In this document: positions 1 through 61,816 of the stretch, one piece after another
Layout of the letters: the number at the start of each line of letters is the position of its first letter
How positions within the stretch are numbered: position 1 is the stretch's first letter
NCBI GenBank assembly: GCA_045105615.1
Contig: JBGCDS010000027.1
Coordinates: forward strand, 3,036 to 67,035
Direction of reading: 5' to 3'
DNA: 64,000 nucleotides
From: Gammaproteobacteria bacterium
GTDB lineage: Bacteria; Pseudomonadota; Gammaproteobacteria; UBA4575
Notes under the pieces: model-generated
What the model was told of the DNA's origin: nothing
The model's database searches: none
Seen by the model: the letters and a program-made list of their open reading frames with translations, nothing else
Made by a program: the position numbers and the translations under genes

Positions 1-1
1 G

Positions 2-739
2 ATCTTTGGTGATCTATCAAAACGGAACGCATTATTTATTGGCGCAGGGGAAACGATTGAACTTGCCGCACAGCACCTTAGCGCCGTCGGCGCCAATCGA
101 ATCACTATTGCTAATCGAAACATTACACGCGCGCAAAAACTGGCAAATAAATTTAATGGCTATGGCATTAGCCTTTCCTACATAGGTGAAGTATTACCAG
201 AAAGCGATATTGTGATTACTGCAACTTCCAGCACATTGCCCATCCTAGGCAAGGGCTTACTGGAAAGAAGCTTAAAGCGACGCAAGCACAAACCTATTCT
301 TGTAATTGACCTAGCGATTCCTCGCGACGTTGAACCTGAAGCGGCTATGTTACAAGACATCTACCTCTACAGTGTTGATGACTTGAAACAAGTAATCCAA
401 GAAAACATGCAATCAAGAATTAATGCTGCTGAAGAAGCTCAAATCATCATTGATGATGAAGTGACTAAGTTTTATCAGTGGATGCGTGGGCAAGATGTAA
501 CGGATGTAATTCGCACTTATCGCGGCCACGCAGAGCAACATAAAAATGAAGCCATAGAAAAAGCAGCACGCATGTTGAAACAAGGAAAATCTTCTGAAGA
601 AGCCATGCAGTTTCTTGCTAACACATTGGTCAATAAACTGTTGCATAGTCCTACCGAAGCATTAAAATCTGCAGGCGCAGAAAATCATCAAGAATTACTT
701 GAGGCGGCTAAAACAATTCTTGGCCTGCCTCGCGATTAA
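2..739 (+). CDS. hemA: glutamyl-tRNA reductase HemA, 3' portion (5' end lies outside window)
   Basis: ORF open from window edge in the same frame as ORF 212..739; Rossmann-like LFIGAGETIELAAQHL segment and dimerisation-domain tail; conserved hemA-prfA-prmC order. Confidence 0.85.
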   Translation: MFGDLSKRNALFIGAGETIELAAQHLSAVGANRITIANRNITRAQKLANKFNGYGISLSYIGEVLPESDIVITATSSTLPILGKGLLERSLKRRKHKPILVIDLAIPRDVEPEAAMLQDIYLYSVDDLKQVIQENMQSRINAAEEAQIIIDDEVTKFYQWMRGQDVTDVIRTYRGHAEQHKNEAIEKAARMLKQGKSSEEAMQFLANTLVNKLLHSPTEALKSAGAENHQELLEAAKTILGLPRD

Positions 740-781
740 GCTCGCGAGTATCCTCACAACTACCCCTTAATAATATCTATC

Positions 782-1864
782 ATGAAAGATTCAATTGTCT
801 CTAAGCTTGAATCGTTGCAAGAACGTCACCAAGAAATTGCCGGACTACTATCTGATCCAGACGTAATCTCAGACCAAAATCAGTTTAGAAAATTATCCAT
901 GGAATATGCGCAACTAGAGCCTGTCGTCGCTGCATTCAGCAAATACTCGCAAACAGTCGAAGATTTAGCTGGCGCAAAAGAAATGCTTGCGGATGATGAC
1001 ACTAGCGTACAAGAAATGGCTCAACAAGAGATTAGCGAATTACAAAAACAACAAGAAGAAGTTGAACTTGATCTGCAAAAATTACTATTGCCTAAAGACC
1101 CTCTAGATAATAGCAATGTGTTCATCGAAGTTCGCGCAGGTACTGGCGGCGATGAAGCTGCTATCTTCGCGGGTGATTTGTTTCGCATGTACTCGCGTTA
1201 CGCAGAACAAAAACGCTGGACAGTCGAAGTTGTTAACATCAATGAAGGCGACCATGGAGGCTACAAAGAAGTCATTGCACGCATTGTTGGACAAGGCGCT
1301 TATTCATTACTTAAATTTGAATCAGGCGCGCACCGCGTTCAACGTGTCCCAGAAACAGAATCTCAAGGACGTGTACATACATCAGCAGCAACTGTCGCTA
1401 TTCTAGCGGAAGCAGATGAAATCGATGATGTCGAAATCAATCCTTCAGACTTACGTGTCGACACCTTCCGCGCATCAGGCGCAGGCGGACAACACGTCAA
1501 CAAAACTGATTCAGCCATTCGACTCACACATTTACCTACAGGCGTCGTCGTCGAGTGCCAAGATGAACGCTCACAACATAAAAATAAAGCTCGTGCGATG
1601 TCATTATTAAAAGCACGTTTGCTAGATGCAGAACAATCCAAACAATTTGCCGAACAGGCTGCGACCAGAAAGAGCTTAGTCGGCAGCGGGGATCGCTCGG
1701 AACGCATACGCACTTACAACTTTCCTCAAGGACGCGTGACAGATCATCGTATCAATCTAACCCTATACAAGCTCGACGAATTAATGCAGGGAAATCTAAA
1801 CGAAATCATTGACCCGCTAATCAACGAGCATCAAGCTGAACAACTTGCTTCTTTGAGCGACTAG
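782..1864 (+). CDS. prfA: peptide chain release factor 1
   Basis: 360 aa, GGQ motif ([23 protein letters not shown]), typical RF-1 length and position after hemA. Confidence 0.95.
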
Positions 1865-1881
1865 TCATTACGCAAATACTC

Positions 1882-3045
1882 GTGACCAGTATCAAACAAG
1901 CCATTCAATATGGTCGCGAGTTATTAACCAATAAAGTCTACAACCCTCAGCAGGAAGCATCCCTCCTACTTGGATACAGCATCAATAAAACTAAAGAGTT
2001 CTTAATTTCTCATTCTGATGAATCAATCAGCGAGATTTCATTTCAACACTACCAAGCATATCTATCACGTCGTGCCAAAGGGGAGCCCATCGCCTATATT
2101 CAGCAACAAAAAGAATTTTGGTCGCTAGATTTAAAAGTAACTCCCGCAGTATTAATCCCTCGGCCAGAAACAGAATTAATTATTGAAATCGCCCTTCAGC
2201 TTTTACAAGGGAAAAATCATGCGAACATTCTAGATCTAGGCACCGGCAGTGGTTGCATTGCACTAGCAATCGCAAAAGAAAAACCTGATGCGCTTATTAC
2301 TGCCTGTGACAACTCTTCGGATTGTATTGATATTGCTAAAATTAATGCACAAAAACACGCACTTGATAACATTACCTTTATCACCAGCAATTGGTTTCAG
2401 TCAGTAGACACTAATAACTTCGATATCATTATCAGCAATCCACCTTACATCTCTAATGATGACGAGGATATTGAATACGGAGTACAAAAATACGAGCCTA
2501 AGCCTGCACTATTCTCGAGCAGACAAGGATTAGAAGATTTATTTCACATTATAAATCACGCACCTAATTATTTATCTTCTAACGGGACATTATTAGTTGA
2601 GCACGGTTATAAACAAGGCAACGATGTTCGCACACAGTTTAGTAAATGCGGTTACAATAACGTTCAGACTTTACATGACATACAACAACTTGAACGCGTT
2701 ACCCAAGGAACGGCGGCTAAATTAATGGACCTAAAAACTGACGAAGACGGATTCTTACTTGACCCAGAAGATTGGGATGAAGATTTCGCATTATCTACCG
2801 CTAAAGAAACAGAGTTAGAATTAAATCAAGATCATTGGCGCGTCATTCATATGATACGTCAACTTTATTCCGACTCTGGCGTGGTTCCTGAGCTGCGTAC
2901 TATTCTAAAAAATTTACGTCAAGAGATAGGTAAAGATAACGCAACACGAAAATATGTGTATGCATTATTCCCATATGGCTACGGTCAACAGGGTTGCAAA
3001 ATTGCTGGCATGCGCAAACCACTGAAACTATGGTTAGATCTATAA
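1882..3045 (+). CDS. prmC: release-factor glutamine methyltransferase PrmC/HemK (res 1-~278, NPPY motif) fused in frame to a ~109-aa TusE/DsrC-family domain
   Basis: GTG start; LDLGTGSGCIA SAM motif, ISNPPYI motif; C-terminal MDLKTDEDGFLLDPEDW...HWRVIHMIRQLY...RKYVYALFPYG..GCKIAGMRKP matches TusE/DsrC architecture but ends LKLWLDL (no penultimate Cys). Confidence 0.8.
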   Translation: MTSIKQAIQYGRELLTNKVYNPQQEASLLLGYSINKTKEFLISHSDESISEISFQHYQAYLSRRAKGEPIAYIQQQKEFWSLDLKVTPAVLIPRPETELIIEIALQLLQGKNHANILDLGTGSGCIALAIAKEKPDALITACDNSSDCIDIAKINAQKHALDNITFITSNWFQSVDTNNFDIIISNPPYISNDDEDIEYGVQKYEPKPALFSSRQGLEDLFHIINHAPNYLSSNGTLLVEHGYKQGNDVRTQFSKCGYNNVQTLHDIQQLERVTQGTAAKLMDLKTDEDGFLLDPEDWDEDFALSTAKETELELNQDHWRVIHMIRQLYSDSGVVPELRTILKNLRQEIGKDNATRKYVYALFPYGYGQQGCKIAGMRKPLKLWLDL

Positions 3046-3073
3046 CACCTCTAAAACTAACAATATAAAATTA

Positions 3074-3081
3074 CCCCCCCC
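3074..3081. repeat. homopolymeric C8 tract in 290-bp intergenic region
   Basis: ttaccccccccctaaaac seen directly; unusual in ~40% GC context. Confidence 0.6.
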
Positions 3082-3336
3082 TAAAACATAGCGATACATT
3101 TCGCTAACTCGTATTACACGTACACAGATCAGCGGCCACTAACAACCGATGAGCTGTTGCACCTAATTTGGCTATTTCTAGTCACATACATAAGTCCGCA
3201 GATAATCAATTAATTATAGCGGTTCGTCTTAGTGGCCTATAACCTTAGCCGGCAACTCAACTATTGTGACCACAATCACAATAGCTGCTTAGCTAGTCAC
3301 TAAGCCAACAAATCTATCCAGAGAGGATTTTTCTCA

Positions 3337-3834
3337 ATGCTTAAACTTATCCAAGTATCTGTTCTTTCTTTCATATGCGCATTTGCCACTCAATTTGCTT
3401 ACTCCGCTAGTGTCGGTGATGACGCACCCTCATTTCGCGCTCGCTCATTAGATGGCTCTGAAACTATCAGTAAAGCAGACCTTGAAGGAAAAGTAGTATT
3501 TGTAGATTTCTGGGCATCCTGGTGCCCGCCTTGCCTTAAATCATTACCCGAATTTGAAAATCTACAGACCTCATTTTCAGGCAGAGATGATGTCGTTGTG
3601 ATTGCAATCAACCTTGATGAAAACCCTAAAGATGCCACTGACTTCATCAACAAGATCAATGTCTCTTACAAAATTCTTGCCGACCAATCAGGTCAAATAC
3701 CAGAAGCCTTTGGTGTTAATGCCATGCCAACCTCATATGTCATCGATCAGTCAGGTGTGATTCGCTATGTTCATAGCGGATACAAATCAGGTGACGTGGA
3801 TAAAATCAAAAATGAGATTGAAAAATTACTATGA
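3337..3834 (+). CDS. TlpA/ResA-family periplasmic thiol:disulfide oxidoreductase (thioredoxin fold)
   Basis: signal peptide then WASWCPPC active site; 165 aa. Confidence 0.85.
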   Translation: MLKLIQVSVLSFICAFATQFAYSASVGDDAPSFRARSLDGSETISKADLEGKVVFVDFWASWCPPCLKSLPEFENLQTSFSGRDDVVVIAINLDENPKDATDFINKINVSYKILADQSGQIPEAFGVNAMPTSYVIDQSGVIRYVHSGYKSGDVDKIKNEIEKLL

Positions 3835-4049
3835 AAATCAAACTTAGCATTGTCTTTATTATTCTCATGACATTAGTCACCTCAGGTTGCACTGCAGTAA
3901 AACCTTGGGAACGTGGCACTCTTACCAAGAAAGAAATGGCGTGGTCACCTGACCCACTCGCGGCAACACTAGGCGAACACATTTACTTTGCTAAAGAAGC
4001 TGCTGCTGGCGGATACGGATCTGCAGGAGGCGGTTGCGGTTGCAACTAA
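3831..4049 (+). CDS. small lipoprotein with C-terminal GGGCGCN tail (DUF4266-like)
   Basis: lipobox LVTSGC, 72 aa, Gly/Cys C-terminus; start overlaps upstream stop (ATGA). Confidence 0.6.
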   Translation: MKIKLSIVFIILMTLVTSGCTAVKPWERGTLTKKEMAWSPDPLAATLGEHIYFAKEAAAGGYGSAGGGCGCN

Positions 4050-4054
4050 AACAA

Positions 4055-5272
4055 AAGCCAATGTCTTATACTAAAAAACAAACGTTAAGCCCTACCGTAG
4101 CAGCTTTATATTCTGCAGCATTTGCATTACCCGCTTACAATAAAGCAGTAGAAGCAGCTTCGCCAGATAGCGAACCTAGCATTAGTGCGCGTGTATCAAA
4201 ATACGAAGAGGATCGGCTAAGCAGTAGTAACTTCTCTGGCCTAGGAGATCAAGAACGTTACGACATTGAAATAGGACAGGTTAGCGTTGTGTATCCCATC
4301 AATGACACAATGCAACTCACAGTAAATAGTGCATATGAAAAAATGAGTGGTGCCTCTGCTTGGTTTGTTCAACCTGATGCTGAAGGCAATCCAGAGCAGG
4401 TCATGAGTGGCGCAACCATTGATGATGAACGCTTGGATGCAAGTGCAAAACTGGATATTTACAAAGGCAAATACACTATTAGCCCAAGCATTGGATTCTC
4501 AACCGAAAAAGATTATCAAGCAATATTCGGCGGCGTGTCAGTCGCACGTGAGTTAGATAATAAATCAACGACACTCCGCGGTGGAATATCCGCTTCTTTT
4601 GACGAGGTAAAACCAACATCAGATCCGGACATTGACCCTGGCCGTATCGATAAAGAAGATAAAGAAAATATTAGTGCCTTTGTTGGTATTGGGCAAGTTA
4701 TCAATAAGAACACTGTCGTTCAGTCCACCTTCACACTCGGACACCTATCTGGATTTTTATCTGACCCTTATAAATTAGTATTTAATTCTGCACTGCCTGG
4801 ATTACGAGATAGTCGCCCAGATGACCGTACCCAATATATATGGTCTGCGCAGCTAAGACGTTGGTCAGAAACTTTATCTGCAGCATTGCATGCAGACTAC
4901 CGATTCTATTATGACGATTGGAATATTCGTTCACATACATTAGACCTTGGATTTTTAAAACATACCGATAGCGGTTGGAGTTTTGAATATTCAATGCGCT
5001 ATTACAGCCAAACACAGGCTGATTTCTATGAGCCATTTTACAACGCTGTACGCTCAGATGGTTATTACTCAAGTGATTATCGCCTATCACCTTATGGAGC
5101 GTTGTCATTCCGTGTAAAACTTGCCGAAACAATCAACAACTGGACATTAGGCGTATCCGCTGAAAGATATATCAGTGATAAATCTTATTCATTGCAAAGT
5201 GTCGACGTGGAAAATCCAGGCTTGGTTGACTTCACCCTATTCACATTTGGAGTGGACTATTCATTTAAATAA
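4055..5272 (+). CDS. exported beta-rich protein, DUF3570-like (alternative TTG start 4034)
   Basis: ~400 aa, N-terminal hydrophobic signal-like segment, alternating beta-strand-like composition, aromatic-rich C-terminus (VDYSFK). Confidence 0.55.
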   Translation, partial: KPMSYTKKQTLSPTVAALYSAAFALPAYNKAVEAASPDSEPSISARVSKYEEDRLSSSNFSGLGDQERYDIEIGQVSVVYPINDTMQLTVNSAYEKMSGASAWFVQPDAEGNPEQVMSGATIDDERLDASAKLDIYKGKYTISPSIGFSTEKDYQAIFGGVSVARELDNKSTTLRGGISASFDEVKPTSDPDIDPGRIDKEDKENISAFVGIGQVINKNTVVQSTFTLGHLSGFLSDPYKLVFNSALPGLRDSRPDDRTQYIWSAQLRRWSETLSAALHADYRFYYDDWNIRSHTLDLGFLKHTDSGWSFEYSMRYYSQTQADFYEPFYNAVRSDGYYSSDYRLSPYGALSFRVKLAETINNWTLGVSAERYISDKSYSLQSVDVENPGLVDFTLFTFGVDYSFK

Positions 5273-5274
5273 TC

Positions 5275-6177
5275 ATGGAAATTTATAATTTTCCATTTCG
5301 CGCGATGGGCAGTCCGTGCGAGTTTCAACTCTATACTTCAGATAAAGACACTGCTGAACTCGCGTGCAAAAAAGCGCATTCAGAAGTCACACGCCTAGAA
5401 AAAAAATATTCACGCTATCGTACCGATAGCGTGACCAACACCATCAACAAATCTTCTGGCAATTTAACAGGCATTAAAGTCGATAGTGAAACAGCGTTAC
5501 TTTTAGACTATGCGCAGGCTGTTTACAAACAGAGCGAAGGTTTATTCGATATTACTTCCGGCGTATTAAGACGCGCATGGAATTTCAAATCAAACCAATT
5601 ACCCACACAGAGCCAAATTGATGAAGCACTAGAATTAGTTGGCTGGCAACATGTCGAATGGCAACGCCCACATATTGTACTGAAGAAAAAAGGTATGGAA
5701 ATCGATTTTGGTGGTTACGTAAAAGAATATGCTGTAGATGCTGCAGCAAACACATTACGCAGTTATGGCATTAACGCCGGCCTAGTTGATTTGGGTGGTG
5801 ATATTAAAGTATTAGGCCCACACCCAGACAATAAGCCCTGGCAAATTGGTATCAGACATCCTAGAGACCCGGCTAACGCCATTGCCACCACCACGTTAGG
5901 ACAGGGAGCCATTGCGAGCAGCGGTGACTATGAACGTTTCATTACTATCGAAGGTAAGCGCTATGCGCATATCCTTAACCCAAAAACAGGCTGGCCAATT
6001 GAAGGATTTAGTGCTGTTAGCGTGATTGCTAGTGAATGCTTAATCGCTGGAAGCTGTTCAACTGTTGCCATGTTGAAAGGTGAGCAAGACGGAAAGTCCT
6101 GGCTTGATTCGTTAAAACTTCCTTATATTAGTGTTAATAAAGACATGCATGTAGAAGGCACTACCAACATCAGTTAA
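5275..6177 (+). CDS. apbE: FAD:protein FMN transferase (ApbE family), no signal peptide
   Basis: 300 aa ApbE-like sequence; in-frame stop 3 codons upstream excludes a leader peptide. Confidence 0.75.
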   Translation: MEIYNFPFRAMGSPCEFQLYTSDKDTAELACKKAHSEVTRLEKKYSRYRTDSVTNTINKSSGNLTGIKVDSETALLLDYAQAVYKQSEGLFDITSGVLRRAWNFKSNQLPTQSQIDEALELVGWQHVEWQRPHIVLKKKGMEIDFGGYVKEYAVDAAANTLRSYGINAGLVDLGGDIKVLGPHPDNKPWQIGIRHPRDPANAIATTTLGQGAIASSGDYERFITIEGKRYAHILNPKTGWPIEGFSAVSVIASECLIAGSCSTVAMLKGEQDGKSWLDSLKLPYISVNKDMHVEGTTNIS

Positions 6178-6596
6178 TTCAAATTCAGTAACACTCTCAC
6201 TTTTGGTGTAAGCAAATCTTCAAGCGTATAATCATCAAGCACAGACAAAAATTGATCCAACGCCCGCGTAAAAATAGTTGCCAATTTGCAACTCGGTGTT
6301 AGCACACATTGATTCTCAGTAGAGAAACATTCCACCAAATCGAAACTTTGTTCTGTCGCACGCACTACTTCACCTAAATTAATCGCTGCTGGTTCGCATA
6401 CCATCTCTAGGCCGCCACCCTTTCCACGAATCGACTGTATAAACCCTAACGTGGCTAACTGATTCACAACTTTGACCAGGTGATTTTTAGGTATCGCATA
6501 GCTCTGTGCAATTTCATCAATCGTACAACGACGATCGGCACTCGCCAGATAAATTAACGTTCTTAAAGCAAAATCGCTGTATTTAGTTAAGCGCAT
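6174..6596 (-). CDS. nsrR: Rrf2-family transcriptional repressor, NsrR/IscR-like with 3 Cys cluster
   Basis: MRLTKYSDFALRTLIYLA wHTH N-terminus; C-x6-C-x5-C (CFSTENQCVLTPSC); divergent from globin genes. Confidence 0.8.
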   Translation of the reverse strand: MRLTKYSDFALRTLIYLASADRRCTIDEIAQSYAIPKNHLVKVVNQLATLGFIQSIRGKGGGLEMVCEPAAINLGEVVRATEQSFDLVECFSTENQCVLTPSCKLATIFTRALDQFLSVLDDYTLEDLLTPKVRVLLNLN

Positions 6597-6609
6597 AGTA
6601 ATAATTCTG

Positions 6610-6666
6610 TTGACATTAACATACATATTATATACATTTTATAAACATACATAACAAATACATCTT
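6610..6666 (+). promoter_or_regulatory. sigma70-like promoter (TTGACA-17-TACATT) overlapped by repeated ATACAT motifs including AAATACATCTT NsrR-type half-site
   Basis: seen in sequence between nsrR and trHb gene; four ATACAT repeats. Confidence 0.5.
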
Positions 6667-6680
6667 TAAGGGGGATATTT

Positions 6681-7049
6681 ATGTCAAATAGCTTATTTGA
6701 ACGAATTGGTGGCGATGCTGCTGTCGGAGCAGCCGTTGATATTTTTTACCAAAAAGTGATTTCTGATGACCACATTAATGGCTTTTTTGAAGGCGTTGAT
6801 ATGTCCAAACAGATGCGCAAAATGAAATCTTTCTTATCTTACGCATTCGGTGCTGACACACCCTTCCAAGGTGAATCTATGCGCACTGCACATGAAAGAC
6901 TAGTCAAGCAAGGATTAAACGACAGTCACTTTGACGCAGTAAAAAATCACATCGATAGCACATTAAAAGAATTAGATGTCGCTCAACCTCTAATTGATGA
7001 AGTGTTAAATATTACTGAGTCGACTAGAAATGACGTACTTAACAAATAA
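6681..7049 (+). CDS. truncated haemoglobin, group I (trHbN-like)
   Basis: 122 aa; FERIGGDAAVGAAVDIFYQKV...GFF pattern typical of 2/2 globins. Confidence 0.8.
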   Translation: MSNSLFERIGGDAAVGAAVDIFYQKVISDDHINGFFEGVDMSKQMRKMKSFLSYAFGADTPFQGESMRTAHERLVKQGLNDSHFDAVKNHIDSTLKELDVAQPLIDEVLNITESTRNDVLNK

Positions 7050-7119
7050 ACACTCAACTAATACTACATAGATGTATTAATAAGAGAGATTCTTTGTAAT
7101 TTCACTAGCGAGGTGAATC

Positions 7120-7569
7120 ATGGAAAATATAAGCGAGCAAACAAGACACATCTTAAAAGATACTGAACATCTTCTATGGGAAAAACAAGTCGAAGTCACG
7201 ACTCGAATGTATGAGATATTGTTTGAAAAATATCCTGAGACCAAAAATTTATTCCAGAGGTTTCGCTCGCATCAACCTAATATGTTTGCGGCTGCACTTA
7301 TGGCTCATATGATGAGCTTAGACGAACCTGAAGAGCTTCTTAGCTTACGGGTTGGTATATGCCGCAACCACGTTATTGCTGGCGTTAAAGAAGAACATTA
7401 CCCCATGCTGGCAGATGCATTGATCTCAGCTATGAGAGAACTACTATCTGAGCAGATGGATGAAAACACTATCGCTGCCTGGGAAAAATGGTACTACTTT
7501 CTTGCCAATCTCCTTATTGAGAGAGAAAGAGATCATTACCAGGAAAAGCATCTACTATTTCCTAAATAA
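7120..7569 (+). CDS. single-domain globin (Vgb/Hmp globin-domain-like)
   Basis: 149 aa; alignable to flavohaemoglobin globin domain (..YPETKNLFQ.. / ..WEKWYYFLANLLIERERDHY). Confidence 0.7.
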   Translation: MENISEQTRHILKDTEHLLWEKQVEVTTRMYEILFEKYPETKNLFQRFRSHQPNMFAAALMAHMMSLDEPEELLSLRVGICRNHVIAGVKEEHYPMLADALISAMRELLSEQMDENTIAAWEKWYYFLANLLIERERDHYQEKHLLFPK

Positions 7570-58573: not shown

Positions 58574-59425
58574 ATGTTCGAAACCAACCCTTTTGCTGTA
58601 CTTTCAGCATATATTTCCCCTGAGATCATGCAAGGCTACGTCATTCTGATGTTTATCTTTGTTGTTGCCGGCACGATTCTCGACATGATGCACAAAAAAA
58701 GTGCGCAGTACTTCTTTGAAAATGCTGAGAAAGCAAAAAAGAATGCAAAACGCACTGTAGGCGGTGGAGAGAAGATATCCATGGCCGTCGCGACAGTGGC
58801 AAATGAGGTATTAACCTCTGGCGAATTCAAGAGCACACGCCGTAGACTGTCTCATCTATTAACAATGTATGGTTTCATTATTTTTGTTGCCACTACTGCA
58901 TGGTTGATTTTCAATTACACCTCAGAAGCAGCTGCTGCACCTACCGCATTGACAACAATGTGGCATGTTGGCGCCATTATGCTTTGCCTAGGTGGTTACT
59001 GGTTTTGGTTCTTCATCCGTGTTGACGTCGCCTCTGAAGGCGTGAAGTGGTACAACTTCAACGGTCGTGGTGACATTTTCATTGTTTCTTTGATCACAAC
59101 AGGCACTTTCGCATTATTATGGTCAGGTACGCTAGCCAGCGGCGGATTACTCAACGTAATCGCCTTTGTCTTATTCATTGTATCTAGCACAATGTTGTTC
59201 AGCACTGTATTTTGGTCGAAGTTTGCACATATGTTCTTCAAGCCTGCTGCAGCGTTCCAAAAGCGCACTACTAAGGCTGATGGTTCATTTGAAAATCTGC
59301 CTGAAGTCGGCGATCTTTCAGATCCTGCTATTCAATCAAAATTCCCGGATATCCCAGAGTATATGGGCACAAATCCACCAAACATGGGCCAAGGTATCAA
59401 ACGTGAAGCCCCAAGCCATTATTAA
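58574..59425 (+). CDS. aprM: putative AprM-type membrane anchor of adenylylsulfate reductase
   Basis: 283 aa, ~5 TM, GGAGG RBS, immediately upstream of aprBA; assignment by synteny/topology. Confidence 0.5.
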   Translation: MFETNPFAVLSAYISPEIMQGYVILMFIFVVAGTILDMMHKKSAQYFFENAEKAKKNAKRTVGGGEKISMAVATVANEVLTSGEFKSTRRRLSHLLTMYGFIIFVATTAWLIFNYTSEAAAAPTALTTMWHVGAIMLCLGGYWFWFFIRVDVASEGVKWYNFNGRGDIFIVSLITTGTFALLWSGTLASGGLLNVIAFVLFIVSSTMLFSTVFWSKFAHMFFKPAAAFQKRTTKADGSFENLPEVGDLSDPAIQSKFPDIPEYMGTNPPNMGQGIKREAPSHY

Positions 59426-59453
59426 TACTTAAAATTTAATAGAGAGAAATATC

Positions 59454-59936
59454 ATGCCTACTTTTGTATATATGACTCGTTGCGATGGTTGTGGACATTG
59501 CGTTGATATCTGCCCTTCAGACATCATGCATATCGACACTACTACCCGACGTGCTTACAACATTGAGCCAAACATGTGCTGGGAGTGTTACTCCTGCGTT
59601 AAGGCTTGCCCACATAATGCTATCGACGTTCGTGGTTATGCTGACTTTGCTCCACTAGGTCACTCAGTACGAGTAATTCGCGATGAAGAGAAAGGTGTTA
59701 TTGCCTGGCGTATTAAATTCCGCAACGGCAAGAAAGACATGAATCTGTTAGCTCCGATTACAACTAAACCTTGGGGTACAGCTATTCCGAATCTATCGGA
59801 TGAATCTGCTCCTAGTAAGGATATGACTGATAGCCAGCTACTTTTCAATGAGCCGAAATACATCCGTTTGGATGAAGGTGGTTTACATACGCTTGAGTCT
59901 AACGGCTTGAAGATGAAAGAAGGAGTTTACTACTAA
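59454..59936 (+). CDS. aprB: adenylylsulfate (APS) reductase beta subunit
   Basis: two [4Fe-4S] motifs CDGCGHCVDICP / CWECYSCVKACP; 160 aa; followed by aprA. Confidence 0.85.
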   Translation: MPTFVYMTRCDGCGHCVDICPSDIMHIDTTTRRAYNIEPNMCWECYSCVKACPHNAIDVRGYADFAPLGHSVRVIRDEEKGVIAWRIKFRNGKKDMNLLAPITTKPWGTAIPNLSDESAPSKDMTDSQLLFNEPKYIRLDEGGLHTLESNGLKMKEGVYY

Positions 59937-61816
59937 TGGGTTATAAAACTGTTGTAGAAGATGACATTGATGTACTGATCACTGGTGCTGGCATGGCCGG
60001 TACCGGTGCTGCATTCGAGTCTAGATATTGGGGCAAGGACAAGAAAATTGTCATTGCTGAGAAAGCAAACATGGATCGCTCAGGTGCAGTTGCACAGGGT
60101 CTATATGCTATCAACACATATATGGGAACTCGTTTCGGTGAAAACAATCCTGAAGATCACGTACGTTACGCGCGTATGGATTTGATGGGTATGGTACGTG
60201 AAGATTTGCTATTTGATATGGCTCGCCATGTTGATTCAGCAGTGCACCAATTCGAAGAATGGGGTTTGCCATTAATGCGTGATCCTAAGACCGGTGCTTA
60301 TCAGCGCGAAGGTCGTTGGCAGATCATGATTCACGGTGAGTCATACAAGCCTATCGTGGCTGAAGCTGCTAAAAAATCAGCAGACAAAGTATTCAACCGT
60401 ATCTGTGTTACTCATTTGTTAATGGATGATGCAAAAGAAAATCGTGTTGCTGGTGCTGTTGGCTTCAACGTACGTACGGGTGATTATCACGTATTCAAAT
60501 CTAAAGCTGTTGTTTGTGCTGCCGGTGGCGCGTCAAATATCTTCAAGCCTCGTTCAGTGGGTGAAGGTGCAGGTCGTGTTTGGTATGCACCATGGTCATC
60601 AGGTTCAGCTTACGGCTTGCTAATTGAAGCAGGCGCGAAAATGACACAGATGGAAAACCGTATTGTGTTAGCGCGCTTCAAAGACGGCTACGGTCCAGTA
60701 GGTGCTTACTTCTTACACCTTAAGACTTACACACAGAATGGTGTCGGCGAAGAGTATGAGTCAAAGTGGTTCCCTGAATTATCGAAAATGGTTGGTAAAG
60801 AATACCTCGATACAGAAGGTCAGCATTTATCTCATAAACCAATTCCAACTTGCTTACGTAACCATGCATTCATCAACGAAGTAAATGCAGGTCGCGGACC
60901 GATTCACATGGTTACCATGGAAGCGTTCCAAGATCCTCATCTTGAAGAAATTGGTTGGCATAACTTCTTAGGTATGACAGTTGGTCAAGCCGTCCTTTGG
61001 GCAGCAACTGACGTCGATCCTAAATATGAGAACCCTGAACTAACAACTTCAGAGCCATATGTAATGGGTTCACATGCCACCGGTTGTGGTGCATGGGTCT
61101 CAGGTCCAGAAGATATCGCACCAGATGAGTACTTCTGGGGTTACAACCGTATGACAACAGTTGAAGGTCTATTCGGCGCAGGTGATGCTGCTGGTGGTAC
61201 ACCACACGCATTCTCTTCTGGCTCATTCACAGAAGGTCGTTTAGCTGCTAAGGCTGCATGCAAATACATCGATGATGGAAAAGCAGAAGGCATTAGAGTT
61301 TCTCAAGAGCAAATTGATAGACGCGGTGAGCAAATCTTCAAGCCGATGGAACATTATAAAATCTATCGCAATGAGATTACTGCGGGTTCAGTCAATCCTA
61401 ATTACATCAACCCACGTCAGGGTCTTGATCGCTTGCAAAAGCTAATGGACGAGTACGCTGGTGGTGTAACTGTTAGCTATATGACCAACGACAAGCTACT
61501 TAACATCGGTCTCAAGAAGATGAAGATGCTTGAGGAAGACTTAGAGAAGATTGCTGCTGAAGATATCCATGAGTTACTTCGCGCATGGGAATTAAAGCAT
61601 CGTCAACTCTCTTCTGAAGCTGTGTTACAACACACTTTATTCCGCAAGGAAACTCGTTGGCCTGGTTACTACTACCGTGGTGACGCGATGAAACTAGATG
61701 ACCAAAATTGGCATGTATTAACTGTTTCACGTCGTGATCCTAAAACTGGTGAGTACACCATGGAAAAAGCTCCTTGCTATCACTTAGTTAGTGATGCAGA
61801 GGAAAAAGTTGCGTAA
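59936..61816 (+). CDS. aprA: adenylylsulfate (APS) reductase alpha subunit (FAD)
   Basis: 626 aa; LITGAGMAGTGAA FAD motif; fumarate-reductase-like fold; start overlaps aprB stop. Confidence 0.9.
   Translation: MGYKTVVEDDIDVLITGAGMAGTGAAFESRYWGKDKKIVIAEKANMDRSGAVAQGLYAINTYMGTRFGENNPEDHVRYARMDLMGMVREDLLFDMARHVDSAVHQFEEWGLPLMRDPKTGAYQREGRWQIMIHGESYKPIVAEAAKKSADKVFNRICVTHLLMDDAKENRVAGAVGFNVRTGDYHVFKSKAVVCAAGGASNIFKPRSVGEGAGRVWYAPWSSGSAYGLLIEAGAKMTQMENRIVLARFKDGYGPVGAYFLHLKTYTQNGVGEEYESKWFPELSKMVGKEYLDTEGQHLSHKPIPTCLRNHAFINEVNAGRGPIHMVTMEAFQDPHLEEIGWHNFLGMTVGQAVLWAATDVDPKYENPELTTSEPYVMGSHATGCGAWVSGPEDIAPDEYFWGYNRMTTVEGLFGAGDAAGGTPHAFSSGSFTEGRLAAKAACKYIDDGKAEGIRVSQEQIDRRGEQIFKPMEHYKIYRNEITAGSVNPNYINPRQGLDRLQKLMDEYAGGVTVSYMTNDKLLNIGLKKMKMLEEDLEKIAAEDIHELLRAWELKHRQLSSEAVLQHTLFRKETRWPGYYYRGDAMKLDDQNWHVLTVSRRDPKTGEYTMEKAPCYHLVSDAEEKVA

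Follow-up and report, generated by a model that had tools for sequence, protein, structure and literature searches.

A PrmC and DsrC-like fusion in a gammaproteobacterium that probably arose by loss of one stop codon

Does a single bacterial gene really join PrmC (HemK), the methyltransferase of release factor RF1, to a protein of the DsrC/TusE family, and if so, how did the two come together and does their union mean anything to the cell? The question is raised by an open reading frame in the window, by which I mean the whole 64,000-nt stretch of gammaproteobacterial DNA analysed here. The original prediction described an in-frame HemK plus DsrC/TusE-like ORF, and both domains are indeed detected by Pfam and NCBIfam profiles. 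The gene and its surroundings are laid out as follows (the loci with which the window was compared carry L numbers throughout):

1..739, + strand: 3' part of hemA (glutamyl-tRNA reductase), the first gene of the hemA-prfA-prmC operon, entering from the window's left end
782..1864, + strand: prfA (RF1, 360 aa; the substrate of PrmC), an ORF whose identical L004/L005 protein carries PCRF and RF-1 domains
1882..3045, + strand: the fused ORF, 387 codons plus TAA, with a GTG start and the order PrmC-Leu-DsrC-like
1882..2721, + strand: ancestral prmC coding part, 280 codons, matched by TIGR03534 and aligned end to end by the 280-aa PrmC of relatives
2722..2724, + strand: TTA (Leu281), the former TAA stop of prmC, with A-to-T at 2723
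2725..3045, + strand: ancestral dsrC-like cistron, 106 codons plus TAA, for a CysA-less, RspA-like member of the DsrC/TusE family

Residues 1-280 of the predicted product, whose computed mass is 43.9 kDa, are a complete PrmC/HemK, residue 281 is Leu and residues 282-387 make up an entire 106-aa protein of the DsrC/TusE family. These boundaries differ a little from those first proposed: HemK had been thought to end at about residue 278 and to be followed by a 109-aa segment, but the last residue of ancestral PrmC is K280, the former stop codon corresponds to residue 281, and the C-terminal segment is 106 aa long and starts at ATG 2725. An identical 387-aa protein is held at NCBI as MFK7795260.1, from a gammaproteobacterial MAG, and the only name on the record is PrmC.

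The PrmC half is unambiguous. The equivalog model TIGR03534 matches the window ORF with 279.5 bits (cut-off 199.1) at residues 25-274, a match above the cut-off that spans essentially the whole model (positions 1-252 of 253), and PF17827 (PrmC_N) and PF05175 (MTS) match this half as well. The SAM-binding motif GTGSG at residue 120 and the catalytic motif NPPY at residue 186 both align with their counterparts in E. coli PrmC, to which window residues 20-276 align at 213 bits (E. coli residues 18-273; PDB 1T43, 2B3T). The likeness extends to length and position, in that the 280-aa ancestral form stops four residues past the last aligned residue, as E. coli PrmC does, and the gene directly follows prfA in the hemA-prfA-prmC operon, with 17 nt between the two. 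The difference is that the window protein has a Leu in place of the stop and then continues for 106 residues of an unrelated family. The PrmC half would presumably still methylate the GGQ glutamine of RF1 and RF2.

Other PrmC proteins also carry something at their C-terminus. Through its PrmC half the window ORF partially matches NF002421 (bifunctional PrmC/TrmB), which is likewise a PrmC with a second C-terminal module; the partner domain, however, differs from that of the window, and NF002421 is a curated equivalog family model whereas the window fusion is confined to a single lineage. P0392, a 519-aa PrmC with an unrelated C-terminal extension of ~230 aa, is another natural PrmC fusion. Because the NF002421 model and P0392 exist, PrmC can be said to tolerate C-terminal additions. 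PrmC also evolves far faster than its operon neighbours: amino-acid identity to L087 and L089 is 81-84% for PrmC, 97-99% for RF1 and 98-100% for HemA.

The C-terminal half belongs to the DsrC/TusE/RspA superfamily, as a proposed HMM check of this segment bears out, since PF04358 and TIGR03342 both exceed their curated cut-offs. With the whole ORF as query the scores are 109.8 bits for PF04358 (cut-off 24.9, residues 283-381) and 97.7 bits for TIGR03342 (cut-off 53.5), and with the C-terminal part alone they are 113.8 and 101.4 bits. The segment is not a TusE, scoring 74.3 bits with the TusE equivalog NF008562 against a cut-off of 191 and having no tail cysteine. It shares a fold family with DsrC (A. 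vinosum 1YX3; A. fulgidus 1SAU) and E. coli TusE, and aligns with A. vinosum DsrC (1YX3) over ~97 collinear residues (E = 1e-21). In this alignment window LFPYGYGQQGCKIAGMRKPL lies opposite DsrC LFPYGPAKQACRFAGLPKPT, and the CysB-equivalent cysteine is therefore retained:

2995..2997, + strand: TGC codon of Cys372, the equivalent of CysB (A. vinosum Cys100), invariant in the family

C372 is the sole cysteine of the DsrC-like domain, and the tail KPLKLWLDL is cysteine-free. The claim that CysB is kept and CysA absent thus stands, with C372 inside a C(K/R)xAG motif and a KLWLDL tail lacking Cys. DsrC sensu stricto has CysA as its penultimate residue and CysB eleven residues earlier (Cys111 and Cys100 in A. 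vinosum), and the window protein has only the CysB equivalent. CysA is also missing from 14/14 aligned homologues, and the C-terminal arm reads KLWLDL invariantly in this family in contrast to PKPTGCV in DsrC. The active cysteine of TusE is the CysA equivalent. In DsrC this penultimate cysteine binds sulfur and is required for the interaction with DsrEFH (PMC3397948). Judged by sequence, the family cannot serve as canonical DsrC/TusE persulfide carriers, since every member examined lacks the sulfur-binding cysteine in the penultimate position; the invariant single cysteine together with the KLWLDL tail suggests instead a function of the family's own. Venceslau and colleagues, in 2014, reportedly gave RspA a regulatory reading. 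In the usage of PMC8477390, RspA is the name for CysA-less DsrC homologues, and the window domain, a member of the DsrC fold family without the penultimate cysteine, is of this RspA type.

Most members of the family stand alone. The 120 best matches to the DsrC-like part include 116 free-standing proteins, which measure 102-111 aa and in most cases 106 aa, and the 14 homologues that were aligned begin at the same Met as the window's DsrC-like part, or upstream of it in three odd-length entries. The 15-sequence family alignment has 44 invariant positions, and the window retains each of them (44/44). In the DsrC-like part, 6 codons have changed synonymously on the window branch alone, as against 2 unique amino-acid replacements (I3L and Q4K). 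With their motifs intact, and with this synonymous excess in the DsrC-like part, both halves look constrained; the signal of selection on the window branch may, however, predate the loss of the stop. The 1YX3 construct has 132 residues and its region homologous to the window domain begins at residue 33, which suggests by analogy that the DsrC fold accepts extra N-terminal residues.

Some further observations concern the two families more widely. The window holds no second dsrC-like or prmC copy within its 64,000 nt. A phage origin of the dsrC-like gene was considered and rejected, as phage records gave just four distant TusE-like matches (31-33% identity). P0370, a 541-aa protein unrelated to PrmC, consists of five tandem DsrC-like repeats, some with a degenerate C-terminal arm and none with an obvious CysA. 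The complete MAG chromosome OZ245760.1 carries two paralogues of the family in different contexts (L038 and L072), 57% and 52% identical to the window's DsrC-like protein.

How the two genes became one can be read from the junction itself. In the seven nearest relatives (L001, L002/L003, L006, L007, L087, L088 and L089), whose identity to the window is 93-99% for RF1, 64-84% for PrmC and 85-94% for the DsrC-like protein, prmC is 280 codons long and stops at a TAA that is followed, in frame and without a spacer, by the start codon ATG of the dsrC-like gene. Their junction reads AAATAAATGGA, or AAGTAAATGGA in L006, and that of the window reads AAATTAATGGA, which is equally long. The stop-codon column is TAA in all seven relatives and TTA in the window, L004, L005 and L090. 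The original prediction had suspected a 1-nt assembly indel as the source of an apparent fusion, and this is ruled out by orthologous junctions of equal length that have an in-frame TAA where the window has TTA. Alignment to orthologous loci thus confirms that two ancestral genes are fused but names a substitution, not an indel, as the cause, and the out-of-frame TAA overlapping the ATG is itself a product of the same A-to-T change. Of the 43 Leu codons in the ORF, 21 are TTA, more than any other, so its decoding poses no obstacle.

The best-supported history would begin with an ancestor in which prmC (280 codons plus TAA) abutted a 106-codon CysA-less dsrC-like gene in the hemA-prfA-prmC operon, and in which one A-to-T transversion at 2723, visible at the DNA level, turned TAA into TTA (Leu). 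I consider it very probable that this is a real, lineage-specific fusion by stop-codon loss and that it is a near-neutral accident and not an evolved bifunctional family. The accident was made easy by the in-frame TAA-ATG junction. Cistrons that abut or overlap are known to fuse when the intervening stop codon is lost, and the window case follows this mechanism, with both parent genes complete.

This history depends on one base, the T at 2723, being real. The exact 387-aa protein is also encoded in the Logan per-run assemblies of SRR29999184 and SRR29999185, and in the assembly of SRR29999183, which contains the exact RF1 protein, the prmC contig reads beyond codon 281 up to the contig end. 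The window and the MAG and run assemblies give four sequences that are identical across the junction. The SRR29999184 contig (L004) differs from the window by four SNPs (4828-4891) and one C8/C7 tract (3074); this makes it an independent consensus, from a population that differs slightly, and TTA is present there too. With TTA present in the MAG protein and in the separate assemblies of three runs, an assembly error is unlikely.

A base-call or consensus error, under which the organism truly has TAA at 2722-2724 and two genes, is one alternative, and a single wrong base in a window that comes from a MAG would suffice for it. TAA is found in every relative, and an exact look-up of the 106-aa product as a stand-alone protein found no record, two points that might be cited in its favour. 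The same T is nevertheless common to the assemblies of SRR29999183, SRR29999184 and SRR29999185 and to the NCBI MAG, the site lies in no long homopolymer, and the variant contig of SRR29999184 shares the junction, all of which makes such an error extremely improbable. An exact look-up of RF1 (360 aa) gave matches only in the three TTA-carrying runs, and a scan of JGI metagenome contigs with a degenerate junction pattern (N at the stop position) returned only L086, which is L003. The three runs have consecutive accessions and probably come from one study or site; the allele may thus be a local one that the species as a whole has not fixed.

Two small differences between the window and SRR29999184 lie outside the fusion. 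The poly-C tract at 3067-3074, just past the fusion stop and within the 290-nt gap ahead of the redoxin gene, is one base longer in the window (C8) than in SRR29999184 (C7); the difference reflects either true length variation or an assembly or homopolymer error. Within the DUF3570 gene, four SNPs fall in 64 nt (4828-4891) and the remaining ~7 kb is identical, a patch that reflects local strain-level diversity or recombination.

If the T is real, is the fusion found anywhere else? It had been called unusual for the RF1 methyltransferase, and the protein searches agree, having turned up no second example. Among 5.8 billion proteins searched with the whole protein, the best 120 matches are PrmC of ~280 aa and none carries PF04358, and HMMER over 1.84 billion 50% representatives found both domains together in none of the best 150 (all at least 207 bits). 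The 90% cluster to which the window protein belongs has 21 members, and among the 15 listed no other is 387 aa long; the members of the ten other nearest 90% clusters are all of 106 aa, save one 90-aa fragment. Clustering had hidden the window fusion under a 106-aa representative, and rare fusions elsewhere could be hidden likewise. An evolved fusion family is not what these data describe: there is no second PrmC plus DsrC protein, and the seven nearest loci keep the stop. As far as sequence searches reach, the combination of PrmC with a DsrC-family domain is new.

The two genes were neighbours before they were one, and the breadth of that association bears on its meaning. The order hemA-prfA-prmC-dsrC-like is common to the nearest orthologous loci. 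HemA is 94-100% identical between the window and its closest-clade relatives (L001-L007, L087-L089), and its 420-aa orthologous product in L001, L002, L004 and L087 has GlutR_N, Shikimate_DH and GlutR_dimer domains. Across 90 loci a dsrC-like gene follows prmC in the nearest clade only, in 19 related loci, the window's own population not counted (L001-L003, L006-L016, L024, L087-L089 and L086, the last on the same contig as L003), and intergenic gaps in this clade range from -14 to +36 nt. The 65 remaining genomic loci have, immediately upstream, a half-size TauE/SafE-like gene (11 loci), Fer4_11+DmsC (~610 aa; 10-11), Rieske (7), glutaredoxin (3), Rrf2 (2) or one of various others, many of them just 0-50 nt from the dsrC-like gene. 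Because these upstream genes are so varied and so closely spaced, the dsrC-like gene seems to ride at the end of any operon, and the varied neighbourhoods argue against a specific partnership with PrmC.

Outside the prmC clade (e.g. L017 2627-3001 and L037 1125-2960) the dsrC-like gene is often the last, after a TauE/SafE-like or Fer4_11+DmsC gene, and DUF4396 is often found downstream of it. In the distant genomes represented by L030, L034 and L072 it adjoins an Rrf2 or globin gene, not prmC. The sulfur and redox contexts of the L017-L085 loci might hint at the family's real role.

In the window the dsrC-like gene is followed at 3337-6177 by genes for a secreted thioredoxin-like redoxin (ResA/DsbE-like), DUF4266, DUF3570 and ApbE (flavin transferase). 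The same cluster occurs in L004 and in six relatives (L001, L002, L006, L009, L087 and L089); only its first two genes are visible in L008, the contigs of L003 and L088 end too soon, and in L007 it is absent, with Rrf2 and globin genes directly downstream. At 6174-7569 of the window an NsrR-like Rrf2 regulator, below the equivalog cut-off, lies divergently beside two globin genes, one Bac_globin and one like the N-terminal domain of Hmp. A search of the window against Rfam gave no match.

Much further along lie the genes behind the aprBA context that had been claimed for this genome, and which is present as described, with aprA preceded by an aprB-like Fe-S ORF:

58574..59425, + strand: QmoC-like membrane ORF, 283 aa, a weak match to NF038018 QmoC (40.4 bits, cut-off 300)
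59454..59936, + strand: aprB-like Fe-S ORF, 160 aa, Cys-rich and ferredoxin-like, upstream of aprA
59936..61816, + strand: aprA (APS reductase), TIGR02061 1094.5 bits

The genes at 58574..61816 confirm a sulfur-oxidiser context only, and they are no part of the fusion.

What would the cell make from the fused gene? Ribosomes starting at GTG 1882 would be expected to read through to the TAA at 3043-3045 and to produce a 43.9-kDa PrmC-Leu-DsrC-like chimera, with a predicted linker of about nine residues (T277-K285). Termination-reinitiation at TAA-ATG, probable in the relatives, would no longer be possible in the window lineage. Internal initiation at ATG 2725 may still yield a free DsrC-like form of 12.4 kDa, and for this there is one candidate signal:

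2705..2710, + strand: AAGGAA, resembling a weak Shine-Dalgarno sequence, 14 nt ahead of ATG 2725 (anti-SD duplex -5.4 kcal/mol)

This element is the sole candidate for separate initiation of the DsrC-like protein, and its spacing is long. It is kept in the relatives but sits within conserved Gln-Gly codons. Many genes in the window lack a Shine-Dalgarno sequence. Promoter-like and terminator-like matches within 1..3500 are no commoner than in shuffled sequence.

Can the fusion be anything other than an accident? One might suppose that it is adaptive, the tethered RspA-type single-Cys domain tying release-factor methylation to sulfur or redox state, or that it sealed a prior partnership. The tight prmC/dsrC-like linkage in the 19 related clade loci and the integrity of both domains are consistent with this, as is a clustering of window-specific changes near the junction (2674-2736, residues 265-285), namely Q265H, H270L, stop281L, I284L and Q285K. 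Residues 255-285 hold 4/10 of the window's replacements as against 6/71 in four relatives (one-sided Fisher p = 0.018, for a region chosen post hoc). Since the region was chosen post hoc and the junction is variable in all lineages, this clustering counts only as a lead. Moreover, the fusion is known from a single lineage, the upstream genes differ outside the clade, and I know of no biochemistry joining PrmC and DsrC-family proteins. An adaptive origin is accordingly very unlikely. The sulfur-relay or regulatory link to RF1 methylation suggested in the original prediction finds no support either, with adjacency limited to one clade and fusion to one lineage. That the fusion, or a prior coupling, is functional, with the single-Cys module sensing sulfur or redox state and modulating PrmC, release-factor methylation and translation termination, has only a slender chance of being right; if it were, the cluster of substitutions at the junction would reflect adaptation of the linker after fusion. 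There is no sign of selection for the fusion.

The opposite reading is that the lost stop is mildly harmful and foreshadows gene loss, that it has crippled the DsrC-like protein, PrmC or both, and that only drift in a small or clonal population has kept it. It would fit the loss of the termination-reinitiation route, the want of a good Shine-Dalgarno sequence before ATG 2725, and the confinement of the allele to runs with consecutive accessions, probably from one study. Against it, no further disabling changes are seen: the PrmC motifs and all 44 invariant positions are intact, the DsrC-like part shows more unique synonymous changes than replacements on this branch, and PrmC bears C-terminal fusions elsewhere. 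I thus regard this reading as unlikely, and the near-neutral loss of a stop codon between two intact genes as the best account of the locus.

For annotation, the practical point is that naming the 387-aa protein as PrmC alone conceals a complete DsrC-family gene, and a census of DsrC paralogues in this MAG would overlook or miscount the fused copy. The novelty is limited to the pair of partners, the mechanism being a textbook one, and the fusion raises no new question in sulfur metabolism or translation termination. What the locus offers is a clean natural case of an in-frame stop-start junction fused by one substitution. If the chimera is stable, an RspA-type DsrC homologue would tolerate a 31-kDa N-terminal partner, and PrmC would tolerate yet another partner at its C-terminus.
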